Notes under the pieces: generated by a model
Seen by the model: only the letters and a program-made list of their open reading frames with translations
Told to the model about the DNA's origin: nothing
Database searches by the model: none
Program-made: the position numbers and the translations under genes
Origin: Alphaproteobacteria bacterium
GTDB lineage: Bacteria > Pseudomonadota > Alphaproteobacteria > Paracaedibacterales > CAITNM01
Reading direction: 5' to 3'
Length of the DNA: 64,000 bases
NCBI GenBank assembly: GCA_947478955.1
Contig: CANJXJ010000002.1
Coordinates: forward strand, 1,926 to 65,925
Part shown: piece by piece, positions 8,903 to 34,519 of the stretch
Layout of the letters: each line of letters begins with the position of its first letter
Numbering within the stretch: position 1 is the first letter of the stretch

Positions 8903-10720
8903 CTAATGCTTATTGCTATTAAACATATTCTCAAGCTGCTGAGAGAACTGTTCATATTTTGTGCGTGCTGCATCTAAACGAGCAGCTTGCGCTGTCCATT
9001 TTTTTTCAATACGTTCAGCTTCTTTTTCTGCCTTTTCAACTTGTCCTTTTAATTTGTCATTTAATTGCCGCACTCGCCTTACTTCAGTAGCAAATTCTCC
9101 AGTAGTTTTGTCTAGGATTGAATCTAATTTTTTAGTAACCTTATCTGCTATACCTTGAGTTGCAACGAGTGTGAAAACTTTAGACTGCCCATCGGTTAAG
9201 GTGTTTCCTGAGTATCCTATAGAAATGTTTTGAAACACGCTATCAGCAGGGCCTTCAAGGCGGTAAGCACTTGTTTGTAAAACATCTCCCGTATCAACCG
9301 TTCCGCATACAAATTTTGCGTAGTACTCGTCACCGGTTCTTTTAAATGTAACTGTTATTGTTTCTCCGGCGATTGAGTCGGACAACGAAGGCCCCAGATC
9401 CCATACACGAAAATCAGTGTTAGAAACTACCGGATAGTTCCCAAACAATTTTTTGACTTTTTCAAAGTTATTAGTAATTGCGGACAAAAGCTTATTACTA
9501 TCAATTATCGCATATGTTCCAGCTTGAAAGCCGGTGGCGGCTTCATCATCTTCCAGGCCAATATCTTGCCATGAAAAATAATCTCCACTGGAGCCGCCTA
9601 CAAGGGTAGCGTTAAAAATTGTGTCCAATTGCTCACTGAGACGCTTAATTAAGGGCGAGCGTAGCATAGAAGCTTCTGGATCGAGGGGGTTTCCTTCATT
9701 GTCTACCATTAGGTTTCTATTTAAAACCTCACGAAGTTCATTATATTGTTTAAATAGTGAAACAATTTTATCAACTACGACTTTTGAATTTTCAGTAAGA
9801 CTAATATTTAAATTGTCATAGGTAGCGCCGCTATTTAATGTCGGGCACAATAGTTTTAAGGTAACCCCAGGAATTAAACCGGTGACAGTATTAGAGTCAA
9901 AATAATAGGTCTTAGTTACCAGCCCGTCTTCACCTGACTTTACATCATATTCAATTTTTGCCTTTATTTCGTTAAGATCTGCTAATGGTGCAACATTAAT
10001 TCCAAAATTTGTTGCTAAAAGTCCGTCAGTGTCAGTGAAAGTAAGAGCAGTGGCAAGCGTAGTTCCATTGATAATTAGGTTAAATTTTGAGGTTGAGCCA
10101 TCTTGGATAACCTGTGCTTGCACGCTTGCCTGGGCATTATTAATATTTGAAACGATATTGTTTAGGCTCTCAGTGGCTACCACTGTAATAGGTATGCCAT
10201 TAATTATAAAGGTACCAGCAAGGTTTAGAGCTGTAGTAGCATCAGTAATCTCAGTTGCGGCTTGGTCTTTAATATATTCGCTACTAATTCTGGAATCAAC
10301 CGTAGCAAGCTGCTTTATGCGAATTGCCATTGAGTTTGTTGTGGCTTTGGCAACTCTATTATCAATGGTTACATCCACATAATTTGATTGAGTATATTCT
10401 CCTGACTTTACTACTGTGGCTTGCAAATCTTTAAATGCATTAGGCGTAGTAGATATCACTCCAAGGTAATTACTAAGTGCTACTGCATCACTACGCAAGG
10501 TCTGGATTTTTGTTTGCAACTCAGAAATTGCAGGAATAACTACAGTTTTATTTTTTTCTATAGCGGCACTTTGCTTTTTGACACCTGCAAGTGTTGCTTC
10601 TTTGAGTTGTTCAGCAACTTCAAGTGGATCAAAACCATCAATTTTTCGTCCCATACGTACAGGTTTTTTACCCGAAGGGTCAATAATAGCCTTACCCATA
10701 GCGAATGTGGATCCGGACAT
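8903..10720 (-). CDS. fliD: Flagellar filament capping protein FliD (hook-associated protein 2)
   Basis: The protein is 605 aa with coiled-coil N- and C-terminal parts (...KTVVIPAISELQTKIQTLRSDAVAL... and ...RLDAARTKYEQFSQQLENMF) flanking a T/N/I-rich beta-type middle region. A fliS-like gene lies downstream. Confidence 0.75.
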   Translation of the reverse strand: MSGSTFAMGKAIIDPSGKKPVRMGRKIDGFDPLEVAEQLKEATLAGVKKQSAAIEKNKTVVIPAISELQTKIQTLRSDAVALSNYLGVISTTPNAFKDLQATVVKSGEYTQSNYVDVTIDNRVAKATTNSMAIRIKQLATVDSRISSEYIKDQAATEITDATTALNLAGTFIINGIPITVVATESLNNIVSNINNAQASVQAQVIQDGSTSKFNLIINGTTLATALTFTDTDGLLATNFGINVAPLADLNEIKAKIEYDVKSGEDGLVTKTYYFDSNTVTGLIPGVTLKLLCPTLNSGATYDNLNISLTENSKVVVDKIVSLFKQYNELREVLNRNLMVDNEGNPLDPEASMLRSPLIKRLSEQLDTIFNATLVGGSSGDYFSWQDIGLEDDEAATGFQAGTYAIIDSNKLLSAITNNFEKVKKLFGNYPVVSNTDFRVWDLGPSLSDSIAGETITVTFKRTGDEYYAKFVCGTVDTGDVLQTSAYRLEGPADSVFQNISIGYSGNTLTDGQSKVFTLVATQGIADKVTKKLDSILDKTTGEFATEVRRVRQLNDKLKGQVEKAEKEAERIEKKWTAQAARLDAARTKYEQFSQQLENMFNSNKH

Positions 10721-12466: not shown

Positions 12467-12556
12467 GGATGGGTGGCCGAGCGGTTTAAGGCACCGGTCT
12501 TGAAAACCGGCGAGGGTGTGAGCTCTCCGTGAGTTCGAATCTCACCCCATCCGCCA
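12467..12556 (+). tRNA. tRNA-Ser (anticodon UGA), with CCA encoded
   Basis: The acceptor stem is GGATGGG/CCCATCC. The anticodon arm CCGGT-CTTGAAA-ACCGG gives anticodon TGA. There is a long variable arm, a T arm GAGTTCGAATCTC, and a 3' GCCA. Confidence 0.93.
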
Positions 12557-19311: not shown

Positions 19312-19857
19312 TTACTTGCGGCGAAATGTGTCCAAGGTCACAACGTTTGAGCCATCCTTAGAATCTTCAGCTTTTTTGTCAGACTTTTTATCTGCAACAG
19401 CCTTATCACCTATGATGGTTTTGCCAATAACTTCGGGAGTTTCTTCAAGCAGTGGACTAAATTGCAGGCCAAATTTTACAGAAGGATCCACAAAGCTTAA
19501 TAGTGCTCCATAAGGTACATACAGCTTTTCATGGGCATCATCAAAGCATAAGGTAACTGTAAAGCCATTTTCATCGGCGCCTAGATCCCAAAATTCGTAC
19601 TGCAAAACAATAGTGACTTCATCACCGTATTGATCACGCAGATAATCAGGAATTTCAACGCCAGGATGTTCTGTTGCAAAGGTAATATAATAGTGATGAT
19701 TGCCGGGTAAACCATTTTTTACAGTGTAGGATATGGTTTTGTAAACAACATCACGCAAGGCTGTTTGTACCATTGCCTCGTAATCTAATGGGTCTTTTGC
19801 CACGGTAATGCTCTCCTTAAATTCCACTTTATAATAGCGGGGGATATTCTGTTGCAA
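19312..19857 (-). CDS. sspB: ClpXP adaptor SspB (stringent starvation protein B)
   Basis: The pattern ALRDVVYKT...GLPGNHHYYITFATEHPGVEIPDYLRDQYGDEVTIVLQYEFWDL...FVDPSVKFGLQF is typical of SspB. There is an acidic/basic C-terminal tail. The start codon is TTG. Confidence 0.85.
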   Translation of the reverse strand: MQQNIPRYYKVEFKESITVAKDPLDYEAMVQTALRDVVYKTISYTVKNGLPGNHHYYITFATEHPGVEIPDYLRDQYGDEVTIVLQYEFWDLGADENGFTVTLCFDDAHEKLYVPYGALLSFVDPSVKFGLQFSPLLEETPEVIGKTIIGDKAVADKKSDKKAEDSKDGSNVVTLDTFRRK

Positions 19858-19861
19858 GGCT

Positions 19862-20200
19862 ACCCCCCAAGCCCCTAAGAGGCTACCGCTTCAACAAACA
19901 GAGTTTGTTTTAGGCAGCAGCTGCAACAACAACCATAGGGTTATTGCTGTTATGAGCAGTAGGAACGAAGAAATTGCTATTCGCAGTTTCTTTTGTTGCT
20001 ACAACTTCATCCTCTTTACGAGTGATCATATATCTGACACTTGTAAAAGTTAGTCCGATAACGACGGTACCATGCCGAGCGAAAGATCCATCTTTACCAC
20101 GCGTGTCGATCCTATGTCGCCCCCATAAAAATGGTGGAGGCGCCGGGTACCGCCCCCGGGTCCACTACGCCTATTCCATAAACCGTTTATCGCTATAGAT
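19862..20200 (-). ncRNA. ssrA: tmRNA (ssrA), circularly permuted two-piece type; outer boundaries are approximate
   Basis: The minus strand reads ...GGACCCGGGGGCGGTACCCGGCGCCTCCACCA (T arm, 3' acceptor strand and CCA, ending at 20132). Then comes TTTTTAT, then GGGGGCGACATAGGATCGACACGCG (5' acceptor strand starting at 20124). GGGGGCG pairs with CGCCUCC and includes a G3:U pair. The tag ORF ends ...AAC CCT ATG GTT GTT GTT GCA GCT GCT GCC TAA (stop at 19910-19912). Confidence 0.8.
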
Positions 20201-20256
20201 GCAAGCATCAGTTTAAATATAGTAGCTTCTGGGAATATTTCAAGGTTTTGATTGCA

Positions 20257-24880: not shown

Positions 24881-25615
24881 ATGAAAATACTAAGCATCAT
24901 AATTTTAAGTATCTTTTGTATAAATTCTTCCATGCTCGAGGCAAGAAAGAACCCCTTTAAAAGCATGGGTAGGGGCTTTAAAAAAATGGGCAGAGGCATA
25001 GGTGGCGTTGCAAAGAAGGGTGTTAATGGGGTTAAGAAAGGAATGCATAGTAAAGCATTTGGTGTTATCTCAAAAATAGGTGGTACTGCTCTTAGCTTCA
25101 CGCCTGCAGGAAATGCGATAAAAGCTGCAAAACTTGCAAGAGCGGGCGTAAAACTGGCACAGGCAGCAAAAAAAACTAAAGCATTACACCAAAGAGCAAC
25201 AGCTGCAGAACACCAAGCCCGTGCTATTCGTGACCAAGCAAACCAAGCAATTCAGATGGGACATGGCAGTGCAGCCTTTTTACATCACCATGCACTTGCT
25301 GCTGAAGCGCAAGCTACAGCTATGCGTGACCATGCAACCAAAGCAATGGTCACCCATCACAAGGCCGTGATGAACCATCATAACATAATGTTGAGTCATC
25401 ATGCAGACTTCATAGATGCCACCAGCGAAGATTCGAACCAAGATATGGGCGATGAAGATAGTGGTTTAGACATGGATGATAGTGAAAATATGAATGAGAT
25501 GTCTGATGATATGAGCATGGATGGTGACGAAATGTCGGATGATGGAATGTCAGATGATATGGGCAGTGATGATGATGGAATGTCAGATGATATGGGCGGT
25601 GATGATACCTATTAA
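24881..25615 (+). CDS. Hypothetical exported block-charged protein with basic K/G-rich, His/Met-rich and Met/Asp-rich acidic segments
   Basis: The leader is MKILSIIILSIFCINSSMLEA. It is followed by KKMGRGIGGVAKKGVNGVKKG, then LHHHALAAEAQATAMRDHATKAMVTHHKAVMNHHNIMLSHH, and then MDDSENMNEMSDDMSMDGDEMSDDGMSDDMGSDDDGMSDDMGGDD. Confidence 0.6.
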   Translation: MKILSIIILSIFCINSSMLEARKNPFKSMGRGFKKMGRGIGGVAKKGVNGVKKGMHSKAFGVISKIGGTALSFTPAGNAIKAAKLARAGVKLAQAAKKTKALHQRATAAEHQARAIRDQANQAIQMGHGSAAFLHHHALAAEAQATAMRDHATKAMVTHHKAVMNHHNIMLSHHADFIDATSEDSNQDMGDEDSGLDMDDSENMNEMSDDMSMDGDEMSDDGMSDDMGSDDDGMSDDMGGDDTY

Positions 25616-27885: not shown

Positions 27886-28620
27886 TTATCTTTTCTTTTT
27901 ACCACTAAAGCAAGGGAAGCACCCACAGCCGACTGTAAAGTCCTCAATTTCCTTAAATCCTGCAGAAATTTGATCAGCAACAACCGCAGAGCTAGTGTAT
28001 GAGGTATTTAATATGCCTGCAAACCATCGAACAAATGGGTCCTTTGGACTCGCAAGCATTTCAACGATACCGCGTTGAATATCAGCAGATAGGTGAGGTA
28101 AACCAGCTTCATCTGGTATTTTATCAAATAATAGAGGAAAGCCTTCTAAAATGGTGCCTCTTACAAATGTTTGACATCCCTCTAAAGTTGCTAGCGTGCT
28201 TAGGTCACTTTTAGCAATGTTAAAGCTACCTAAAACTTTTCCAAAGGCACCGTATACAGCATTCTCATTATTGAAGTACTTCCCGAACTCACCAAATTTA
28301 CCTGGATTTTTGCGTGCTCCTTCGGCAATGCCTTCAAATGTAAGGTATGCAATGTCTATGAGTTCTAACTTTCCACCACCAAATTTTTCGTTAAAAAGAA
28401 ATACGCCGATTTTTTTTGCGGTATCAAGGGGGTCACTAAAGTTAAGTATGCATTGTTTAAAGGGCATTACAGCGGGAGGTGCTGCATCTATAATATCTTC
28501 ACCTAGAGTGATCGCGCTTAATTCCGTTGCTGCAGTAGCGGAAAATACATTAGAGACGCATAAGAAAGCAAATACCAAAGCACTGGCCTTTGTTAAAAAT
28601 TTATTCATTTTTTTCTCCAT
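27886..28620 (-). CDS. Hypothetical exported protein with a Cys-rich polybasic C-terminus
   Basis: The leader is KFLTKASALVFAFLCVSNVFSATA. I recognised no domain. The protein ends ...FTVGCGCFPCFSGKKKR. Confidence 0.6.
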   Translation of the reverse strand: MEKKMNKFLTKASALVFAFLCVSNVFSATAATELSAITLGEDIIDAAPPAVMPFKQCILNFSDPLDTAKKIGVFLFNEKFGGGKLELIDIAYLTFEGIAEGARKNPGKFGEFGKYFNNENAVYGAFGKVLGSFNIAKSDLSTLATLEGCQTFVRGTILEGFPLLFDKIPDEAGLPHLSADIQRGIVEMLASPKDPFVRWFAGILNTSYTSSAVVADQISAGFKEIEDFTVGCGCFPCFSGKKKR

Positions 28621-28764
28621 GAAATAAGGTTTTAGAAAAATTGATCAACGCTGATCCAAGGAGAAGTATATTTGTTACATATTAATATTTCGTAAATAAG
28701 AAATAATTAATCACATTAATCTTTATTAAAGATATATTATTGCTAAGGGTGGCCCCAATATGTT

Positions 28765-29075
28765 GTCATGGCGAGCGAAGCGTGGCCATCCAATGTATGG
28801 TATCAATATTGTATGATAAGACTGGATTGCCGCGGGCTTGCAGCCTTCGCAATGACGGCTTTCTTTCTGGCATTCTCTCTCATCCTATTTTTACTCTTTG
28901 TCATTCCCGTGAAAACAGGAATCCATAATGATACGTTCCACTGGATCCCCGCTTTCGCGGGGATGAGGCTAAAGAGGCGCAGTTTTGCTCAATCAGAATT
29001 CTGCATGCACCTGTCCTCAACAGTCATAGTCTTTCTCCGGTCAAGCCGGAGGAAAACTATGGGAACAATGGAGGA
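28765..29075. repeat. Cluster of three short palindromic (REP/MITE-like) elements in a 627-bp intergenic region
   Basis: Element 1 (28765-28856) has arms GTCATGGCGAGCGAAGCGTGGCCATCCA / CTGGATTGCCGCGGGCTTGCAGCCTTCGCAATGAC. Element 2 (28900-28967) has arms GTCATTCCCGTGAAAACAGGAATCCA / TGGATCCCCGCTTTCGCGGGGATGAG. Element 3 (29014-29075) is a long imperfect hairpin centred on CTCCGG-tcaag-CCGGAG. Confidence 0.7.
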
Positions 29076-29178
29076 TATAGCGTAAAAAATAGATCCCTAA
29101 GCCAAAAGCTAGGAGTATCCAACCATGACCGACAAGAGAGGGGGGGCGGAGAGGGGGATAATACCCAATTTGTATTAA

Positions 29179-29199
29179 CCCCGCGAACATGTCGCGGGG
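29179..29199 (-). terminator. GC-rich hairpin about 50 nt downstream of ftsZ, possibly a terminator
   Basis: The hairpin is CCCCGCGA-acatg-TCGCGGGG. On the ftsZ strand it is followed by TTAATACAAATT, which is A/T-rich but not a clean U-tract. Confidence 0.35.
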
Positions 29200-29247
29200 G
29201 TGCGAGAGAATTTTTAAGCGTTTATAATGAATAAATACTAATTAAGT

Positions 29248-30723
29248 TTATCCACCGCGGCGCAAGAATGCCGGGATATCAATAAGATCATCCTTTTTTT
29301 CTGGCGTTTGGGGTTGTCCAAAATTTGTTTCAATCATTGGCCCTGTTTGAGAAGATTTACGGCTCACACCGGTAAAACGTTCAAAAAGACTGGGGCTTCG
29401 TTTCTTTTCTTGGGGATGATGATCAGCCGCCTGTGTAGGGTCATTATATCCCTTGGCTGGGTTGTCAATTGGGGTCAATTGTTCTGGTAAATTTTCATAA
29501 TCTTCTTGGGCATCATAACCTTCAAATGGCTCATCTGTTTGTTGTTGATGGTGGGAAAGTGATGTTTCAAAGCTAGGTTCTGAAAATGCAGTGATTGGCG
29601 CTTGGGTAGGAGATTGGTTGAACCCAGAAAACGTTGAGAAGATATTGCCGCTAGTGACTGGTCTTGTTACGCCTAAGGTTTCATTTACAGATGGAGCAGG
29701 GGCTACTGTGGCGCGATTGTGTTGAGTTGCCATTGTTGGCACCAATCCTCCAATACCTGTTGCCACAACTGATACGCGCATTCTTCCATTGAGGCGTTCA
29801 TCAAAAGTGGAGCCAAAAATAATATTTGCTTCTGAATCAACGTCTTCACGAATACGATTTGCTGCTTCATCGACCTCATATAACGTCATGTCATAGCCAC
29901 CTGTGATGTTAATTAATACACCTCGGGCACCCTTCATGGAGACATCATCTAATAATGGGTTAGAAATTGCTGCTTCTGCTGCATCTAGGGCACGACGTTC
30001 ACCTTCAGCTTCTCCGGTACCCATCATTGCTTTACCCATCTCTGCCATGACTGCGCGAATGTCTGCAAAGTCAAGGTTGATAAGTCCAGGCATAATCATG
30101 AGATCAGTTACACCACGTACACCTGAATACAAAACATCGTCTGCCATTTTGAATGCATCAGCAAATGTTGTGCGCTCATTAGCTAAGCGGAAGAGGTTTT
30201 GGTTGGGGATAATAATAAGGGTGTCAACATACTGTTGTAGTTCATCAATTGCACCTTCGGCGGTGCGGGAACGGTGTGACCCTTCAAAATTAAATGGTCG
30301 GGTTACCACGCCAACAGTTAGTACGCCCATTTCACGAGCTGCGCGTGCGATAACAGGAGCGGCACCACTGCCGGTTCCTCCACCCATACCTGCTGTTATG
30401 AATAGCATGTTGCTACCCTTAATGATTTCGAGTACCTCTTCGATTGATTCTTCTGCCGAAGCTCTGCCTACGTCAGGCTTTGAGCCTGCACCAAGTCCTT
30501 GAGTAACATGAAGGCCAAGTTGAATACGTCTCTCTTTAGGGACAAGAGATTGGGTAAGTGCCTGTGCATCGGTATTTGCGATTAAAAATTCAACACCTTC
30601 AAGCTTTGCTCGAATCATATTGTTAACGGCATTTCCGCCAGCACCACCAACACCAATAACACTAATGCGAGGGCGAAGTTCTAATTCATCATGGACGAGG
30701 TTTGTTTTTGGCATGCTATTCAA
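29248..30723 (-). CDS. ftsZ: Cell division protein FtsZ
   Basis: Motifs are [13 protein letters not shown], the tubulin signature [10 protein letters not shown] and NLDFADI. There is a long P/Q/S-rich linker and a C-terminal peptide [14 protein letters not shown]. Confidence 0.97.
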
Positions 30724-30851
30724 CTTTGCTTTTATCTACCAATTATTGTACCCCGTCTTGTAATTTCTACCAAGTGGGTTTTTTAAGTTTTCTTTATTTT
30801 TGTTCCTCACTGGTAAATATTATTGCCCAATACCGCCAGATTAAAGGCGAT

Positions 30852-31070
30852 TTATTGATTATGGCTTCCATCGCAATAGGGTGGATTTTTTGTTTGTTTG
30901 CATCCACACAAATATCGAGTTTGTGAAGTAGGCTCTGTAAAATGAAGGGATTTTTTCCCGATACCTTTGTGAGCGCCATCACAAAAAGGTTGATTGAGAC
31001 TTAATCCGCAAGTACACCAATAGTAAGTTTTTCCTGCTTCTAATTGTATTTCATAGGGGCTTTTTTTCAT
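30852..31070 (-). CDS. CDGSH iron-sulfur domain protein with two CDGSH motifs
   Basis: The two motifs are WCTCGLSLNQPFCDGAH and LCGCKQTKNPPYCDGSH. Confidence 0.88.
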   Translation of the reverse strand: MKKSPYEIQLEAGKTYYWCTCGLSLNQPFCDGAHKGIGKKSLHFTEPTSQTRYLCGCKQTKNPPYCDGSHNQ

Positions 31071-31144: not shown

Positions 31145-31321
31145 ATGAAATTAGCACAACTTTTTATGTTAGTAATGGTATTTTTGGCTGCATTTTTTGC
31201 CCCAATTAATGCAGACACATCTGCTGTGGCTCCTACTGCACCTGCTGCGGCTCCTGATGCTGATGCTGATGAAGAAGATGAAGAAGATGATGAGGAAGAA
31301 GACGAAGACGAGGACGAATAG
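31145..31321 (+). CDS. 58-aa exported polyanionic peptide (not in the ORF track)
   Basis: The ATG is at 31145. The translation is MKLAQLFMLVMVFLAAFFAPINA|DTSAVAPTAPAAAPDADADEEDEEDDEEEDEDEDE, ending in TAG. A rho-independent terminator follows about 37 nt downstream. Confidence 0.5.
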   Translation: MKLAQLFMLVMVFLAAFFAPINADTSAVAPTAPAAAPDADADEEDEEDDEEEDEDEDE

Positions 31322-31357
31322 TCGCATCTTTAATATCTAAAATACTTTAAGTCGCAC

Positions 31358-31394
31358 GCGAAACACCTAAGTAATTGGGTGGTTCGCTTTTTTT
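31358..31394 (+). terminator. Rho-independent terminator after the small acidic ORF
   Basis: The stem GCGAAACACC / GGTGGTTCGC has one mismatch and a 9-10 nt loop. It is followed by TTTTTTT. Confidence 0.6.
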
Positions 31395-31480
31395 ATGCGC
31401 CTTACAGGGGTTTTTTATCTTTTTATAAACCCTTTCTTAAGATTTTCCCATGTATAATGACGTTGAACATATAAAAAATA

Positions 31481-32206
31481 ATGTTGATGAGAATATTATG
31501 TATTTTATTGCTCAGTGGATTCGCGCTCTATGGTTCTGATTTGTATGACCAGGATAACAACGACGCGGATGAAGATACAGTAACCACTGGCGATAATAAA
31601 CCTGAAGCTGACGATGCTGTTGATTCTGCACCTAGTGACGAAGCAGATGCGGGTACCGAAGGTGCTAGCACGGATGGTAATGATGAAGGTGATGCTAGCG
31701 CGAGCGGGGATGATGATAGTGATGCTAATGCCAGTGGCGATGATGACAGCGATGCTAATGCCAGTGGCGATGATGACAGCGATGCAAGCACGAGTAACGA
31801 TAATGATGCTAGCGTAAAAGATACGATGGAAGGGGAGTTTGATAGTGTAAAGGATGCTACTGGTGGTCTGTTTGATAAGTTAGGTAAGGATGATGATAGC
31901 GACTCGAGTGACACAGAAAGTGGATCTTCAGGAGGCGATGATGGGTCAGATAGTAGTGAAGTTGATGATGCAAAGAACAAAGTTAAAGGCGTGGTAAAAA
32001 ACAAAATAGGTGACGCGAAAAATAAACTTGATGGTGCAAAGAACAAAGCTAAGGGCATGGTAAAAAACAAAATAGGTGATGTAAAAAGTAAACTCGACGG
32101 TGCAAAGAACAAAGCTAAAGGCATGGTAAAAAATAAAATAGGTGGTGCAAAAAATAAACTTTCTGGGTTGAAAAACAAATTGACTAAAAGAAAAAAGATG
32201 AAATAG
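31481..32206 (+). CDS. Hypothetical exported repeat protein with a D/S-rich acidic N-block and a K-rich C-block of 22-aa repeats
   Basis: The leader is MLMRILCILLLSGFALYGS. DANASGDDDS repeats are followed by three copies of DGAKNKAKGMVKNKIGDVKSKL and the tail LTKRKKMK. Confidence 0.6.
   Translation: MLMRILCILLLSGFALYGSDLYDQDNNDADEDTVTTGDNKPEADDAVDSAPSDEADAGTEGASTDGNDEGDASASGDDDSDANASGDDDSDANASGDDDSDASTSNDNDASVKDTMEGEFDSVKDATGGLFDKLGKDDDSDSSDTESGSSGGDDGSDSSEVDDAKNKVKGVVKNKIGDAKNKLDGAKNKAKGMVKNKIGDVKSKLDGAKNKAKGMVKNKIGGAKNKLSGLKNKLTKRKKMK
31691..31810 (+). repeat. 30-bp in-frame tandem repeat, about 4 copies (DA[NS]ASGDDDS)
   Basis: Units start at 31691, 31721, 31751 and 31781. Units 2 and 3 are identical (gatgctaatgccagtggcgatgatgacagc). 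Confidence 0.9.
31964..32203 (+). repeat. 66-bp in-frame tandem repeat, 3 copies plus a partial copy (22-aa K-rich unit)
   Basis: Units start at 31964, 32030 and 32096, and the remainder is degenerate. Confidence 0.9.
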
Positions 32207-32313
32207 ATGGAAAAAAGTGCGTTAGCTAATAAAATTGCCGATATTGTAAACATGTTTAGTTTATAGGTTGTTTAACTATTGTTTTTAAAGAAAGTACAAG
32301 AAGGTTGGGTTTT

Positions 32314-33093
32314 ATGAAAGTCATTTATTATTTTTTACTGGGGATCTTGCTTTACGGCAGCATTATCTACGCGTCAGATGACGATGATAGCTCAGGTGAT
32401 TTAAGCGTGAGTGATGACAATGCACCTTCAGACGATGCTGATGATATATCTCTAGAGGATTCTGGGGATACATCTTCAGACGATGCCGGGGATACTGAGG
32501 ATACATTCTCAGAGGATGCTGGGGATACATCTTCAGACGATGCCGGAGATACATCTTCAGATGATGCCGGGGATACATCTTCAGACGATGCTGGTGGTGA
32601 AGATGATGCAGGCGGCGGTGCTGGCGGTGATGAAGACGACGCAGCACAGAAAAAGGCTGATGCTGATGCCAAGAAGAAAGCAGCGGCAGATAAGAAGAAA
32701 AAAGCAGACGCGGCGAAGAAGAAAGCAGCAGCAGATAAGAAGAAAAAAGCAGACGCGGCGAAGAAGAAAGCAGCGGCAGATAAGAAGAAAAAAGCAGACG
32801 CAGCCAAGAAGAAGAAAGCAGCGGCAGATAAGAAGAAGAAAGCAGCGGCAGATAAGAAGAAAAAAGCAGACGCAGCCAAGAAGAAGAAAGCAGCGGCAGA
32901 TAAGAAGAAGAAAGCAGCAGCAGATAGGAAGAAGAAAGCAGCAGCAGATAGGAAGAAGAAAGCAGCAGCAGATAAGAAGAAGAAAGCAGCAGCAGCGAAG
33001 AAAAGTGCTGCGAAGAAAGGTGCAAAAGGAGCTGTGAAGAAAGGTGCAAAAGGAGCTGCAAAGAAGGGTGCCAAAAAAGCAATTAGACGTTAG
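32314..33093 (+). CDS. Hypothetical exported repeat protein with a GDTSSDDA-repeat acidic N-block and a K/A-rich basic C-block
   Basis: The ATG at 32314 lies after AGAAGG. The leader is MKVIYYFLLGILLYGSIIYAS. GDTSSDDA repeats are followed by AKKKAAADKKKKADA repeats and a KKGAKGAVKKGAKGAAKKGAKKAIRR tail. Confidence 0.6.
   Translation: MKVIYYFLLGILLYGSIIYASDDDDSSGDLSVSDDNAPSDDADDISLEDSGDTSSDDAGDTEDTFSEDAGDTSSDDAGDTSSDDAGDTSSDDAGGEDDAGGGAGGDEDDAAQKKADADAKKKAAADKKKKADAAKKKAAADKKKKADAAKKKAAADKKKKADAAKKKKAAADKKKKAAADKKKKADAAKKKKAAADKKKKAAADRKKKAAADRKKKAAADKKKKAAAAKKSAAKKGAKGAVKKGAKGAAKKGAKKAIRR
32464..32592 (+). repeat. 24-bp in-frame tandem repeat (GDTSSDDA), 4 copies plus one 33-bp variant
   Basis: Units are at 32464, 32521, 32545 and 32569. 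The variant is at 32488-32520. Confidence 0.9.
32668..32997 (+). repeat. Composite tandem repeats of about 45 bp encoding K/A/D-rich units
   Basis: The unit gccaagaagaaagcagcggcagataagaagaaaaaagcagacgcg recurs with small insertions and deletions. Confidence 0.85.
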
Positions 33094-33136: not shown

Positions 33137-34324
33137 TTACTCGACCTTTTTATTGACGACCAATGTTACACAAGCATCAGACCAAATATTAATGGCGCTT
33201 TCTAGCATATCAAGCAGAGCGTAAAACGGTAAAATTACTCCCATCATGGTGATGGGGACGCCCATAGCTGTTAGCAGTGCACAACTTAAGAAGAAGCATC
33301 CCATGGGAACACCAGCGTTACCAATGGCTGCAATGCTTGCCATAAAAATCCATAAAATTCGTTCAAATGCTGAAAAATGTACTCCATAATTTTCAGCAAC
33401 AAATAATACGGTAATTAATATAAAAGCAGCGCATGCATTCATATTTATACTGGTGCACAATGGAAAGCTAAATTGGCTAATTTTGGTACTTACGCCGCAC
33501 CGGTGGCTGCATTGCATGGCAAGAGGCATGGCTGCTGCGGAAGATTTTGAAAAGAACGCCAACGATAACGCCGGAAACATCGTTTTAAAAGCTTGCATAG
33601 GTGGAATGCCATTTTTCTTAAGCATTAAAGGCAATGTAACGCAGGCTTGAATAAGATTAGCTGCAATGATAATGCCGAGATAAGAAGCGAGTTCTCCAAA
33701 CTTTAAGCCCTTTTGCACTTCTTGGGTAAATTCCACAATAAATGCCCAAACCGCAAAGGGCATAAGCGCTGTAATCCACCTAATAACCACCATGATGGCT
33801 GAAAAGAAGCAATCAAAAAGATTGTGCATAGATTCACGCTTTTCAGTGGGTAACTGCAATACGGCAAAACTTAAGAATATGGTAATGAACATAACGCCCA
33901 GGACGTTGTGTTCTAAAAAGGGTTGCAATAAATTGCTTGGGAAAATATTCATTAGGGCACTAAGGTATGATGCATCTTTGAGGCCTTCCATACTTTGAGT
34001 GGTGGTTATCTGCAGAGCGGCTTCCGGCTCAACAATAATATATAGTATCCAAGCGGTTATTGCGGATAATAGGGTGGTTATGACAGTGTAGCGAATGACA
34101 TGTTGACCGAGATTTTTTATTTCCGACCATTTTCCCATACCGGTTAGGGTTGCTAGTAAAGAAAAGCTGATGATTGGTAAGCTCACTAACTTTAGTAACC
34201 GCATAAAAATATCACTTAGGATCCGGGCAAATTCTAGTACAGCTGGTTGCTGCGTAACGCCAGCCAGTACACCGAGGGCTACCATTACCAATAAAAATTT
34301 AAAGGAACGGATAATTCTTACCAT
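33137..34324 (-). CDS. Dicarboxylate/amino acid:cation symporter (DAACS family, GltP/DctA-like)
   Basis: It is a multi-TM protein with SSAAAMPL and IAAIGNAGVPMG motifs characteristic of the family. Confidence 0.9.
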   Translation of the reverse strand: MVRIIRSFKFLLVMVALGVLAGVTQQPAVLEFARILSDIFMRLLKLVSLPIISFSLLATLTGMGKWSEIKNLGQHVIRYTVITTLLSAITAWILYIIVEPEAALQITTTQSMEGLKDASYLSALMNIFPSNLLQPFLEHNVLGVMFITIFLSFAVLQLPTEKRESMHNLFDCFFSAIMVVIRWITALMPFAVWAFIVEFTQEVQKGLKFGELASYLGIIIAANLIQACVTLPLMLKKNGIPPMQAFKTMFPALSLAFFSKSSAAAMPLAMQCSHRCGVSTKISQFSFPLCTSINMNACAAFILITVLFVAENYGVHFSAFERILWIFMASIAAIGNAGVPMGCFFLSCALLTAMGVPITMMGVILPFYALLDMLESAINIWSDACVTLVVNKKVE

Positions 34325-34443: not shown

Positions 34444-34519
34444 GCCCAGATAGCTCAGTTGGTAGAGCAAGGGATTGAAAATCCCTGTGTCGCTGGTTCG
34501 ATTCCGGCTCTGGGCACCA
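34444..34519 (+). tRNA. tRNA-Phe (anticodon GAA), with CCA encoded
   Basis: The sequence starts GCCCAGATAGCTCAGTTGGTAGAGC. The anticodon arm AGGGA-TTGAAAA-TCCCT gives GAA. The T arm is GCTGG-TTCGATT-CCGGC, the acceptor stem is TCTGGGC, and the 3' end is ACCA. Confidence 0.95.

Follow-up and report, generated by a model that had tools for sequence, protein, structure and literature searches.

Three consecutive plus-strand genes (genes 1, 2 and 3) at positions 31145-33093 of the window, the 64-kb stretch of contig CANJXJ010000002.1 analysed here, are real genes as judged from their conservation in relatives, and have about an even chance of encoding Sec-exported polyelectrolytes, proteins that would act via their charge outside the cytoplasm. 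The three same-strand open reading frames (ORFs) of the original prediction were recovered exactly (58, 241 and 259 amino acids (aa), all on the plus strand), and are as follows.

31145-31321, plus strand: gene 1, coding sequence of 58 aa; leader, A/P/T-rich spacer and D/E tail.
31481-32206, plus strand: gene 2, coding sequence of 241 aa; leader, acidic block and basic block.
32314-33093, plus strand: gene 3, coding sequence of 259 aa from the ATG; leader, acidic block and basic block.

The gene 1 leader (residues 1-23, 31145-31213) ends at the predicted cleavage site INA/D, and the presumed mature peptide of 35 aa has a net charge of -20 and terminates in a 21-residue D/E tail (31256-31318). 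The gene 2 leader (residues 1-19, 31481-31537) is followed by an acidic D/S/G/N block of 144 aa (residues 20-163, 31538-31969; charge -47) and a basic block of 78 aa with a KRKKMK end (residues 164-241, 31970-32203; charge +24), resulting in a presumed mature product with a net charge of -23. Gene 3, with a TTG at 32305 upstream of its ATG, has a leader of 20 residues (residues 1-20, 32314-32373; site IYA/S), an acidic block of 91 aa (residues 21-111, 32374-32646; charge -37) and a basic K/A/D block of 148 aa (residues 112-259, 32647-33090; charge +54), and its presumed mature product has a net charge of +17. Tandem Repeats Finder analysis confirmed the 30-bp, 24-bp and 22-aa (66-bp) in-frame repeats that had been read from the sequence: 30-bp DDDSDANASG repeats (x3.5, 31680-31785) in the gene 2 acidic block, 66-bp repeats (x3.0, 31962-32161) in gene 2, 24-bp GDTSSDDA repeats (x4.3, 32491-32594) in gene 3 and, in the gene 3 basic block, a 24-bp array (x14.1, 32671-33002) and KKGAKGA units (24 bp x2.9, 33007-33076). 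The predicted order of the blocks was correct and their lengths were slightly off, being 144/78 and 91/148 aa rather than about 130/66 and about 95/130 aa. SVKDTMEGEFDSVKDATGGLFDK is an example peptide from the non-repeat parts of the products. Charge segregation (kappa) was 0.34-0.35, approximately twice that of shuffled sequences (0.16-0.18 +/- 0.03), and no other real ORF of the window is as low in complexity as genes 2 and 3. The publicly available call for gene 2 (window 31450-32206, equivalent to L084 2137-2893) is inconsistent (757 nt vs 239 aa): its range does not translate to the listed product, and 239 aa are obtained from the ATG at 31487.

The coding strand of the cluster needed testing because its antisense frames are also open, as purine-rich repeats predict. 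The window was compared with ftsZ or cluster loci of relatives (designated by L-numbers, L001 being from a metagenome-assembled genome (MAG) labelled 'Ca. Odyssella sp.'), and the start, leader, block order and stop of the cluster genes were found to be kept at the same position, with at least three divergent lineages retaining them. Gene 3 shows 11 synonymous and 6 non-synonymous differences between the window and L001 over its first 26 codons, three GDTSSDDA 24-bp units of gene 3 differ at synonymous third positions only, and the two changes between the first two 30-bp units of gene 2 are both synonymous. All indels seen are in frame, and the sole within-species allele difference aligned is a clean in-frame 72-bp deletion. 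The antisense ORFs encode proteins that are not conserved between lineages, and public gene callers place the genes on the plus strand. Coding on the plus strand, as originally proposed, is thus borne out by positional orthologues, the excess of synonymous change and the lack of conservation of the antisense products.

The leaders were assessed by a heuristic check of the basic N-region, hydropathy windows and small residues at positions -3 and -1. Each contains one basic residue (K or R, within the first 4 residues) followed by a hydrophobic core, with the best 12-aa hydrophobic windows of the three having a mean Kyte-Doolittle (KD) hydropathy of 2.4-3.0, and small-residue (-3,-1) sites are present at INA/D in gene 1, LYG/S or GFA/L in gene 2 and IYA/S in gene 3. 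Acidic residues, and no basic cluster, lie directly after each leader. By these heuristics the N-termini of genes 1-3 look like Sec (type I) signal peptides, in support of the Sec-type leader predicted for each gene. The lipobox pattern [LVI][ASTVI][GAS]C was not found in the leaders, as RILC in gene 2 and FLCC and ILLCGG in its orthologues break the G/A/S rule at position -1. A hydropathy scan of genes 1-3 found no second hydrophobic segment outside the leader; the hydrophobic core of gene 3 (18 residues) is long enough for an uncleaved anchor. In a BLASTP comparison of genes 2 and 3 the leaders alone align (9/20 identical, E 0.002). The shared leader core proposed as LL.G..LYGS was therefore found, its gap-free form being.L.G..LYGS, and the suggestion that genes 2 and 3 are paralogues extends solely to this 20-residue match.

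AlphaFold predictions from single sequences gave a leader helix, unstructured acidic halves (predicted local distance difference test score (pLDDT) of about 50) and a single uninterrupted helix in each basic block. The predicted gene 2 helix spans residues 158-240 (83 residues, pLDDT 85-95, about 12 nm), with a further weakly predicted helix at residues 109-135 within the acidic block, and the predicted gene 3 helix spans residues 108-258 (151 residues, pLDDT 86-92, about 22 nm by arithmetic). No globular C-terminal domain is present in the models of genes 2 and 3, and both proteins end in basic repeat. A hydrophobic-moment scan was performed at 1-degree steps using the Kyte-Doolittle and Eisenberg scales, with shuffled sequences for comparison. 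The gene 2 helix has one peak at 98 degrees (the 3/11 harmonic of an 11-residue repeat) and another at 164 degrees (5/11), and the 98-degree peak was 1.10 vs 0.56 +/- 0.12 in shuffles on the Kyte-Doolittle scale and 0.22 vs 0.19 +/- 0.04 in shuffles on the Eisenberg scale. A hydrophobic-moment scan of the gene 3 K/A block showed no amphipathic signal, which suggests a uniformly cationic rod. The amphipathic 2 x 11 helix of the original prediction is therefore supported in part for gene 2, on the Kyte-Doolittle scale only, and not for gene 3.

The three-gene cluster is located between ftsZ and a symporter gene in the window and in L001-L004, L081-L083 and L093-L098. The window corresponds to a metagenome scaffold in ENA (MEHR18-2, SAMN08331103, scaffold_3936). 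Its FtsZ shares 83% identity with the counterparts in MAGs labelled 'Ca. Odyssella sp.' or 'Ca. Finniella' and 78% with that of a Lac Pavin MAG, with further relatives at 66% or less. The window and its close relatives belong to the Paracaedibacteraceae (Holosporales). When 80 ftsZ loci of other alphaproteobacteria were scanned for composition and leaders, similar ORFs turned up in L001-L004 only, and by composition filter the cluster is absent near ftsZ in every more distantly related Holosporales locus. For the least repetitive member, the 108-aa orthologue of gene 2, a collection of 5.8 billion proteins contains just four near-identical clusters, all unnamed and without Pfam domains. Based on the ftsZ-locus scan and this count of four clusters, the cluster is confined to one small clade.

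Within this clade the cluster has diverged rapidly relative to its neighbours. Between the window and L001, identity is 79-90% for neighbouring genes and 61% for an orphan 130-aa ORF, whereas the global alignment identities of the cluster genes are 38% (gene 1), 27-39% (gene 3) and 16% (gene 2), values that, low as they are, are inflated by composition; tblastn of the cluster genes recovers the gene 3 leader only. The overall plan persists. Gene 1 orthologues in L001-L004, L081-L083 and L093 are 54-76 aa in length and consist of a leader, an A/P/G spacer and a D/E run, with the length range set by the D/E run (from mixed D/E up to 16-26 consecutive E), and gene 3 has a constant plan of a leader beginning MK[VI][IF]YY, an acidic block and K/A/D repeats. 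In the sister lineage gene 2 is 108 aa, acidic and without a basic block, which indicates that the 22-residue K-rich repeats of the window gene 2 are a lineage-specific addition, and gene 3 is net neutral or negative with a short basic block. Comparison of these sequences indicates that what is retained under selection is the leader, the composition and the order of the charge blocks, not the sequence. In L001 the gene 2 orthologue (9190-9530, minus strand) lacks a start and leader, its frame beginning mid-protein, and gene 3 has 2 KKKADA units compared with 12 in the near-identical L093; this truncation and short array may reflect either real decay or contraction, or assembly collapse.

The original prediction of length variation of the variable-number tandem repeat (VNTR) type is borne out in the short-read data available, as gene 3 is 259, 235 and 217 aa in assemblies with an identical symporter (one species) and sister-lineage KKKADA counts are 2, about 11 and 12 units. 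The 235-aa form differs by the clean, in-frame loss of 24 aa. Across the relatives, position is conserved and repeat number differs between assemblies.

Adding up the net charges of the three products gives -26 for the window, -53 for L081 and -44 for L001. Since these sums are net negative and gene 2 orthologues are acidic only, the conserved core would be an exported polyanion. The suggestion that the polyanionic peptide acts as a neutralising partner of the polycations is not supported, as no balance is conserved among these values, and an acidic pro-block before a cationic block is not a conserved feature, as sister-lineage gene 2 is all acidic and gene 3 is neutral or negative.

In the proposed mechanism, the N-terminal leader would take each product across the inner membrane, with the acidic stretch right after the leader permitting Sec export and the polycationic segments of genes 2 and 3 trailing. 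Basic residues adjoining a signal peptide block Sec translocation, and the order leader-acidic-basic would for this reason suit Sec. Outside the cytoplasm the acidic parts would remain extended and disordered, and the lysine-rich parts would turn helical when neutralised and bind polyanionic surfaces. The predicted 83-residue helix of gene 2, with its possible 11-residue hydrophobic stripe, may lie on anionic membrane or lipopolysaccharide (LPS), and the 151-residue cationic rod of gene 3 may suit LPS phosphates, nucleic acid or acidic proteins. The basic blocks would be add-ons, the length of which could be tuned by repeat expansion or contraction.

The site of action may be the envelope surface or the interface with the host cytosol, the products serving as a charged coat or as host-binding proteins of a naked cytoplasmic symbiont. 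Members of the Paracaedibacteraceae (Holosporales) are, as known so far, only protist symbionts (PMC11909080), and at least one has been reported in the host cytoplasm without a host-derived membrane, with an electron-lucent halo described for a relative (PMC11144129). A host-interface site is favoured because of this membrane-free family member, because the genes are clade-restricted, dispensable (the L001 copy of gene 2 being truncated) and length-variable, because the window holds further leader-bearing orphan low-complexity proteins, and because lysine-rich repeats of Plasmodium target the host periphery and acidic repeats mask them (PMC5207086).

Several points weigh against exported polyelectrolytes at the host interface. 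A Sec leader route ends at the periplasm, and no outer-membrane route was identified. Type VI secretion does not use Sec leaders, and helix prediction from a lone K/A-rich sequence is expected and is no proof of helicity in vivo. In Holosporales it is type VI secretion that is conserved (PMC11909080). Fast divergence alone is no pointer to a host interface, as disordered regions evolve fast anyway, and the 11/3 amphipathic signal of gene 2 depends on the scale used. All copy numbers are from short-read metagenome assemblies, which are prone to break or collapse arrays; N gaps are present in L003 and L094, and the contigs of L002, L082, L083, L095 and L096 end inside an array. Exact repeat numbers are uncertain because so many contigs break or hold N gaps within the arrays.

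The most serious alternative, which we consider possible but rather unlikely, is that the products are periplasmic housekeeping polyelectrolytes, free or tethered by an uncleaved leader, that serve as fixed anions or spacers. They might set the Donnan potential and buffer Mg2+, Ca2+ and K+ in the manner of the anionic periplasmic glucans of other proteobacteria, or span the periplasm like TolA domain II or the TonB spacer, possibly in a division-linked role given the ftsZ neighbour. Delivery by a Sec-type leader no further than the periplasm, a net negative exported polypeptide as the conserved feature, a predicted gene 3 helix of about 22 nm (151 residues), on the order of the periplasmic width, and a conserved place beside ftsZ and a Glu/Asp-type symporter all agree with this explanation, as do the parallels of the acidic-then-basic TonB spacer and the K/A/E helix of TolA. 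However, the products have neither a C-terminal globular domain nor a TolA/TonB profile match, the cluster is absent by composition filter from the ftsZ loci of more distant Holosporales, gene 2 is truncated in L001, and lengths differ by as much as twofold, more than would be expected of a molecular ruler.

A more specific form of action through charge, in which one free polyanion and two block polyampholytes undergo extracytoplasmic complex coacervation and form a charge-patterned layer or condensate on the naked symbiont, is speculative and improbable. The basic helices would hold such a layer on LPS, with the acidic brushes facing the host and the repeats tuning thickness and charge. If true, such a layer would take over the function of a capsule or of periplasmic glucans with protein alone, and would be an example of an extracytoplasmic condensate in bacteria.

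It is very unlikely that the ORFs are spurious or decaying, that is, intergenic microsatellite-like repeats with open frames as a by-product of purine-rich DNA. This would account for the open antisense frames, the extreme composition and very low sequence conservation, the one truncated orthologue and the unstable copy number, but not for the start, leader, block order and stop shared by at least three divergent lineages, the synonymous excess in leader and repeat units, indels that are all in frame, or antisense products that are not conserved.

Slightly less probable still is that genes 2 and 3 encode precursors of antimicrobial peptide (AMP) or bacteriocin type, from which proteolysis would free a cationic part to attack the membranes of competitors or host organelles, with gene 1 as inhibitor or immunity factor. 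The layout of leader, acidic block and cationic block is present, and the cationic helix of gene 2 would have an 11-residue hydrophobic stripe. However, the predicted helices (83 and 151 residues, in cationic parts of 78 and 148 aa) are far too long for such peptides, the gene 3 block is not amphipathic, the charges do not balance, and no protease, transporter or immunity gene is nearby. The block boundaries (SSEVDDAKNK and DEDDAAQKKADA) contain no dibasic or otherwise recognisable processing site. The three-part layout is found only in window genes 2 and 3; in orthologues the basic block is missing (gene 2) or short (gene 3) while the acidic parts persist. The AMP-precursor idea of the original prediction is thereby reduced to a resemblance of layout, without a processing site and not conserved in the sister lineage.

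Finally, membrane-tethered cytoplasmic nucleoid proteins, with an N-terminal anchor and K/A repeats that bind DNA like Hc1/Hc2 or H1 tails, are scarcely credible: the K/A repeats are alike in composition and the repeat number of Hc2 also varies, but one basic residue before and an acidic run after the hydrophobic segment run contrary to the positive-inside rule, no Hc1 or linker-histone Pfam family matches at E<=1, orthologues are mostly acidic, and gene 1 has no basic part at all.

Searches of Pfam, NCBIfam and PADLOC found nothing at curated threshold for genes 1-3, and no meaningful PDB sequence match was found, in agreement with the original statement that none could be assigned to a named family. 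Sub-threshold matches were compositional and were rejected: Ribosomal_60s and P1 for gene 1; CsbD, xseA, Phasin and Apolipoprotein for gene 2; Mitofilin and RTF1 for gene 3. The best Pfam match of gene 2, CsbD-like (PF05532), scored 19.1 bits vs a gathering threshold of 40 (E 1.2e-3) and covers the basic block only; Apolipoprotein A1/A4/E (PF01442) scored 12.3 bits vs 90 in gene 2, and Mitofilin/Mic60 (PF09731) scored 18.2 bits vs 27.4, over profile positions 8-222 of 614, its anchor and low-complexity part. No Hc1 or linker-histone family was found at E<=1 in Pfam or NCBIfam for the cluster proteins, and neither the NCBIfam tolA_full model nor the Pfam TolA/TonB models matched genes 1-3. An exhaustive phmmer search of 1.84 billion representatives, with residues 111-241 of gene 2 as the query, yielded 12 weak matches (best E 3e-6), rejected as unrelated repeats (leucine-rich repeat proteins, low complexity and one CsbD-like protein).

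Searches of a word-indexed protein collection with genes 2 and 3 were empty, which says little because that collection does not contain genes 1-3 as exact sequences. Genes 1-3 and the ORF at 24881 (below) are missing from a clustered collection of 15 billion proteins despite gene calls in the contig index, and low-complexity proteins seem to drop out of the clustered collection, blinding homology searches. Orphan status thus derives mainly from the profile libraries and the narrow distribution at the DNA level. A literature search on charged-repeat, signal-peptide or disordered proteins of endosymbionts found nothing for Paracaedibacteraceae.

The cluster is flanked by the following minus-strand genes, and the predicted neighbourhood was confirmed, with ftsZ and a CDGSH gene before the cluster and a DAACS symporter gene after it. 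A terminator-like element lies within the cluster.

29248-30723, minus strand: ftsZ, probable start ATG 30714; conserved flank, divergent from gene 1.
30852-31070, minus strand: zf-CDGSH iron-sulfur protein gene (Pfam E 2.5e-18); flank, outside the cluster.
31364-31381, plus strand: terminator-like hairpin and T run, 43 nt past the gene 1 stop; consensus match only.
33137-34324, minus strand: SDF/DAACS symporter gene (Pfam E 1e-84); conserved flank, convergent with gene 3.

Upstream of ftsZ are the CDGSH gene and then the charged-protein cluster; the CDGSH gene is present at L004 and absent from the arrangement in L001-L003. In the region 29248-31070 the usual ftsQ or ftsA is not found in front of ftsZ, and the approximately 630 bp 3' of ftsZ (28621-29247) contain no convincing ORF and no Rfam match. 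A sigma-70 promoter scan found nothing convincing upstream of genes 1-3. A replication origin or other non-coding cause was rejected for the strong skews in GC and AT at 31-33 kb: these are attributable to purine-rich codons, and cumulative skew climbs monotonically over the window.

Further orphan proteins are encoded in the window. One orphan of 244 aa (24881-25615, plus strand), which matches neither a Pfam nor an NCBIfam family, has an N-terminal hydrophobic segment MKILSIIILSIFCINSSMLEA, a basic block beginning RKNPFKSMGRGFKKMGRGIGGVAKKG, a His/Ala-rich middle and an acidic D/M/S/G-repeat C-terminus, the reverse of the order in genes 2 and 3; as basic residues directly follow its hydrophobic segment, an N-out anchor with a cytoplasmic body is suggested rather than export. 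Directly 3' of ftsZ, a leader-bearing orphan of 244 aa (27886-28620, minus strand; about 40% identical in L001-L003, L082 and L083) ends in a Cys cluster and polybasic tail GCGCFPCFSGKKKR, reminiscent of eukaryotic lipidation or polybasic membrane-targeting ends. The 130-aa leader-bearing orphan at 35705-36097 (plus strand; beginning MQRILLCLLYILPIHGAKFPGF) is 58-64% conserved in L001, L003 and L081, matches no Pfam or NCBIfam family, and adjoins rsfS/rlmH and a CreD-family gene. The largest, a 1068-aa leader-bearing orphan (39040-42246, minus strand) in a GC-rich (47%) stretch with an AT skew of -0.39, contains P/M/G/Q repeats, a patch of DDDDDDLDDEDMD, segments rich in S/T/P/A, a coiled-coil-like E/K/A/Q region, QQAAAQQQ repeats and a basic end; it is length-variable, with a 1028-aa variant in a same-species assembly, and has weak similarity in L001 and L003 (E 1e-11). 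Other features are a two-piece (permuted) alphaproteobacterial transfer-messenger RNA gene (19819-20247, minus strand; tag peptide ETANSNFFVPTAHNSNNPMVVVAAAA), tRNA-Ser (12467-12556) and tRNA-Phe (34444-34519).

Going by its sequence, the cluster is real, clean and odd, and is confined to a small uncultured clade. If exported as predicted, its products would be a compact group of natural polyelectrolytes from linked genes, comprising a polyanion of 35 residues and two diblock polyampholytes, with block lengths that simple repeat slippage could alter. The cluster would then be a tractable case for charge-only symbiont action at the envelope or host interface, for Sec handling of a 150-residue polycation, and for tuning of function by repeat number. 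The cluster also reveals a blind spot in practice, in that exported low-complexity proteins of uncultured symbionts are systematically missed by standard clustered databases and hidden Markov model searches. If the products are ordinary periplasmic fillers or non-functional, the cluster is a mere curiosity of one small clade.

Comparison with known systems places the cluster in none of the families considered, as every sequence-family hallmark tested failed. The cytoplasmic, DNA-binding and K/A-rich chlamydial Hc1/Hc2 proteins and histone H1 tails, among which Hc2 varies in repeat number, resemble genes 2 and 3 in their repetitive K/A composition but have no leader or acidic half, so that the histone-like resemblance of the original prediction is one of composition and not of homology. 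E. coli Asr is comparable in joining a signal peptide to a basic, disordered, low-complexity polypeptide, and is a periplasmic Lys/Ala/His-rich acid-stress protein, enterobacterial in distribution; it lacks an acidic block and tandem DNA repeats, and no similarity to it was detected. The TonB spacer (acidic Glu-Pro then basic Lys-Pro) and the K/A/E-rich helix of TolA domain II share with the cluster proteins the plan of an N-terminal hydrophobic segment followed by long charged segments, but the conserved anchor motifs and C-terminal globular domain of TolA and TonB are absent here, and the cluster is limited to a small clade. The 22-residue unit of gene 2 has K/G/N-rich turns and, on the Kyte-Doolittle scale only, an 11-residue hydrophobic periodicity like those of the helices of CsbD, group 3 LEA proteins, apolipoproteins and synucleins, and is far more cationic (about +5 per 22 residues).

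Closer parallels are found among exported repeat proteins. The staphylococcal Clf/Sdr stalks are exported D/S-rich, length-variable extended charged spacers encoded by short in-frame DNA repeats, but these are Gram-positive, LPXTG-anchored and joined to folded ligand-binding domains, whereas the cluster proteins have no folded domain or sorting motif. Ehrlichia TRP32/47/120 and Treponema pallidum Arp are sequence orphans with acidic Ser/Asp/Glu-rich tandem repeats of strain-variable copy number, and resemble the cluster in having acidic, variable repeats in obligately host-associated bacteria. There is no homology, the Ehrlichia TRPs exit by type I secretion without a Sec leader, and neither TRPs nor Arp have an extended polycationic second half, or a separate polyanionic peptide encoded alongside. 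In Plasmodium, exported proteins with lysine-rich repeats (GARP, Hyp12, KAHRP-type) target the host cell periphery in a length-dependent manner, an adjacent acidic repeat masks the lysine-rich repeat of Hyp12, and repeat number differs between strains (Davies et al. 2016, PMC5207086). Low complexity, tandem lysine-rich repeats and an intracellular organism are common to both, with export here being predicted; the Plasmodium proteins are eukaryotic and exported by PEXEL and translocon, and there is no sequence relationship. A diblock of acidic disordered segment and very long polycationic helix, encoded beside a separate 35-residue exported polyanion, appears to be undescribed in bacteria. By analogy, the cluster would work most like the exported, charge-biased VNTR proteins of host-associated organisms.

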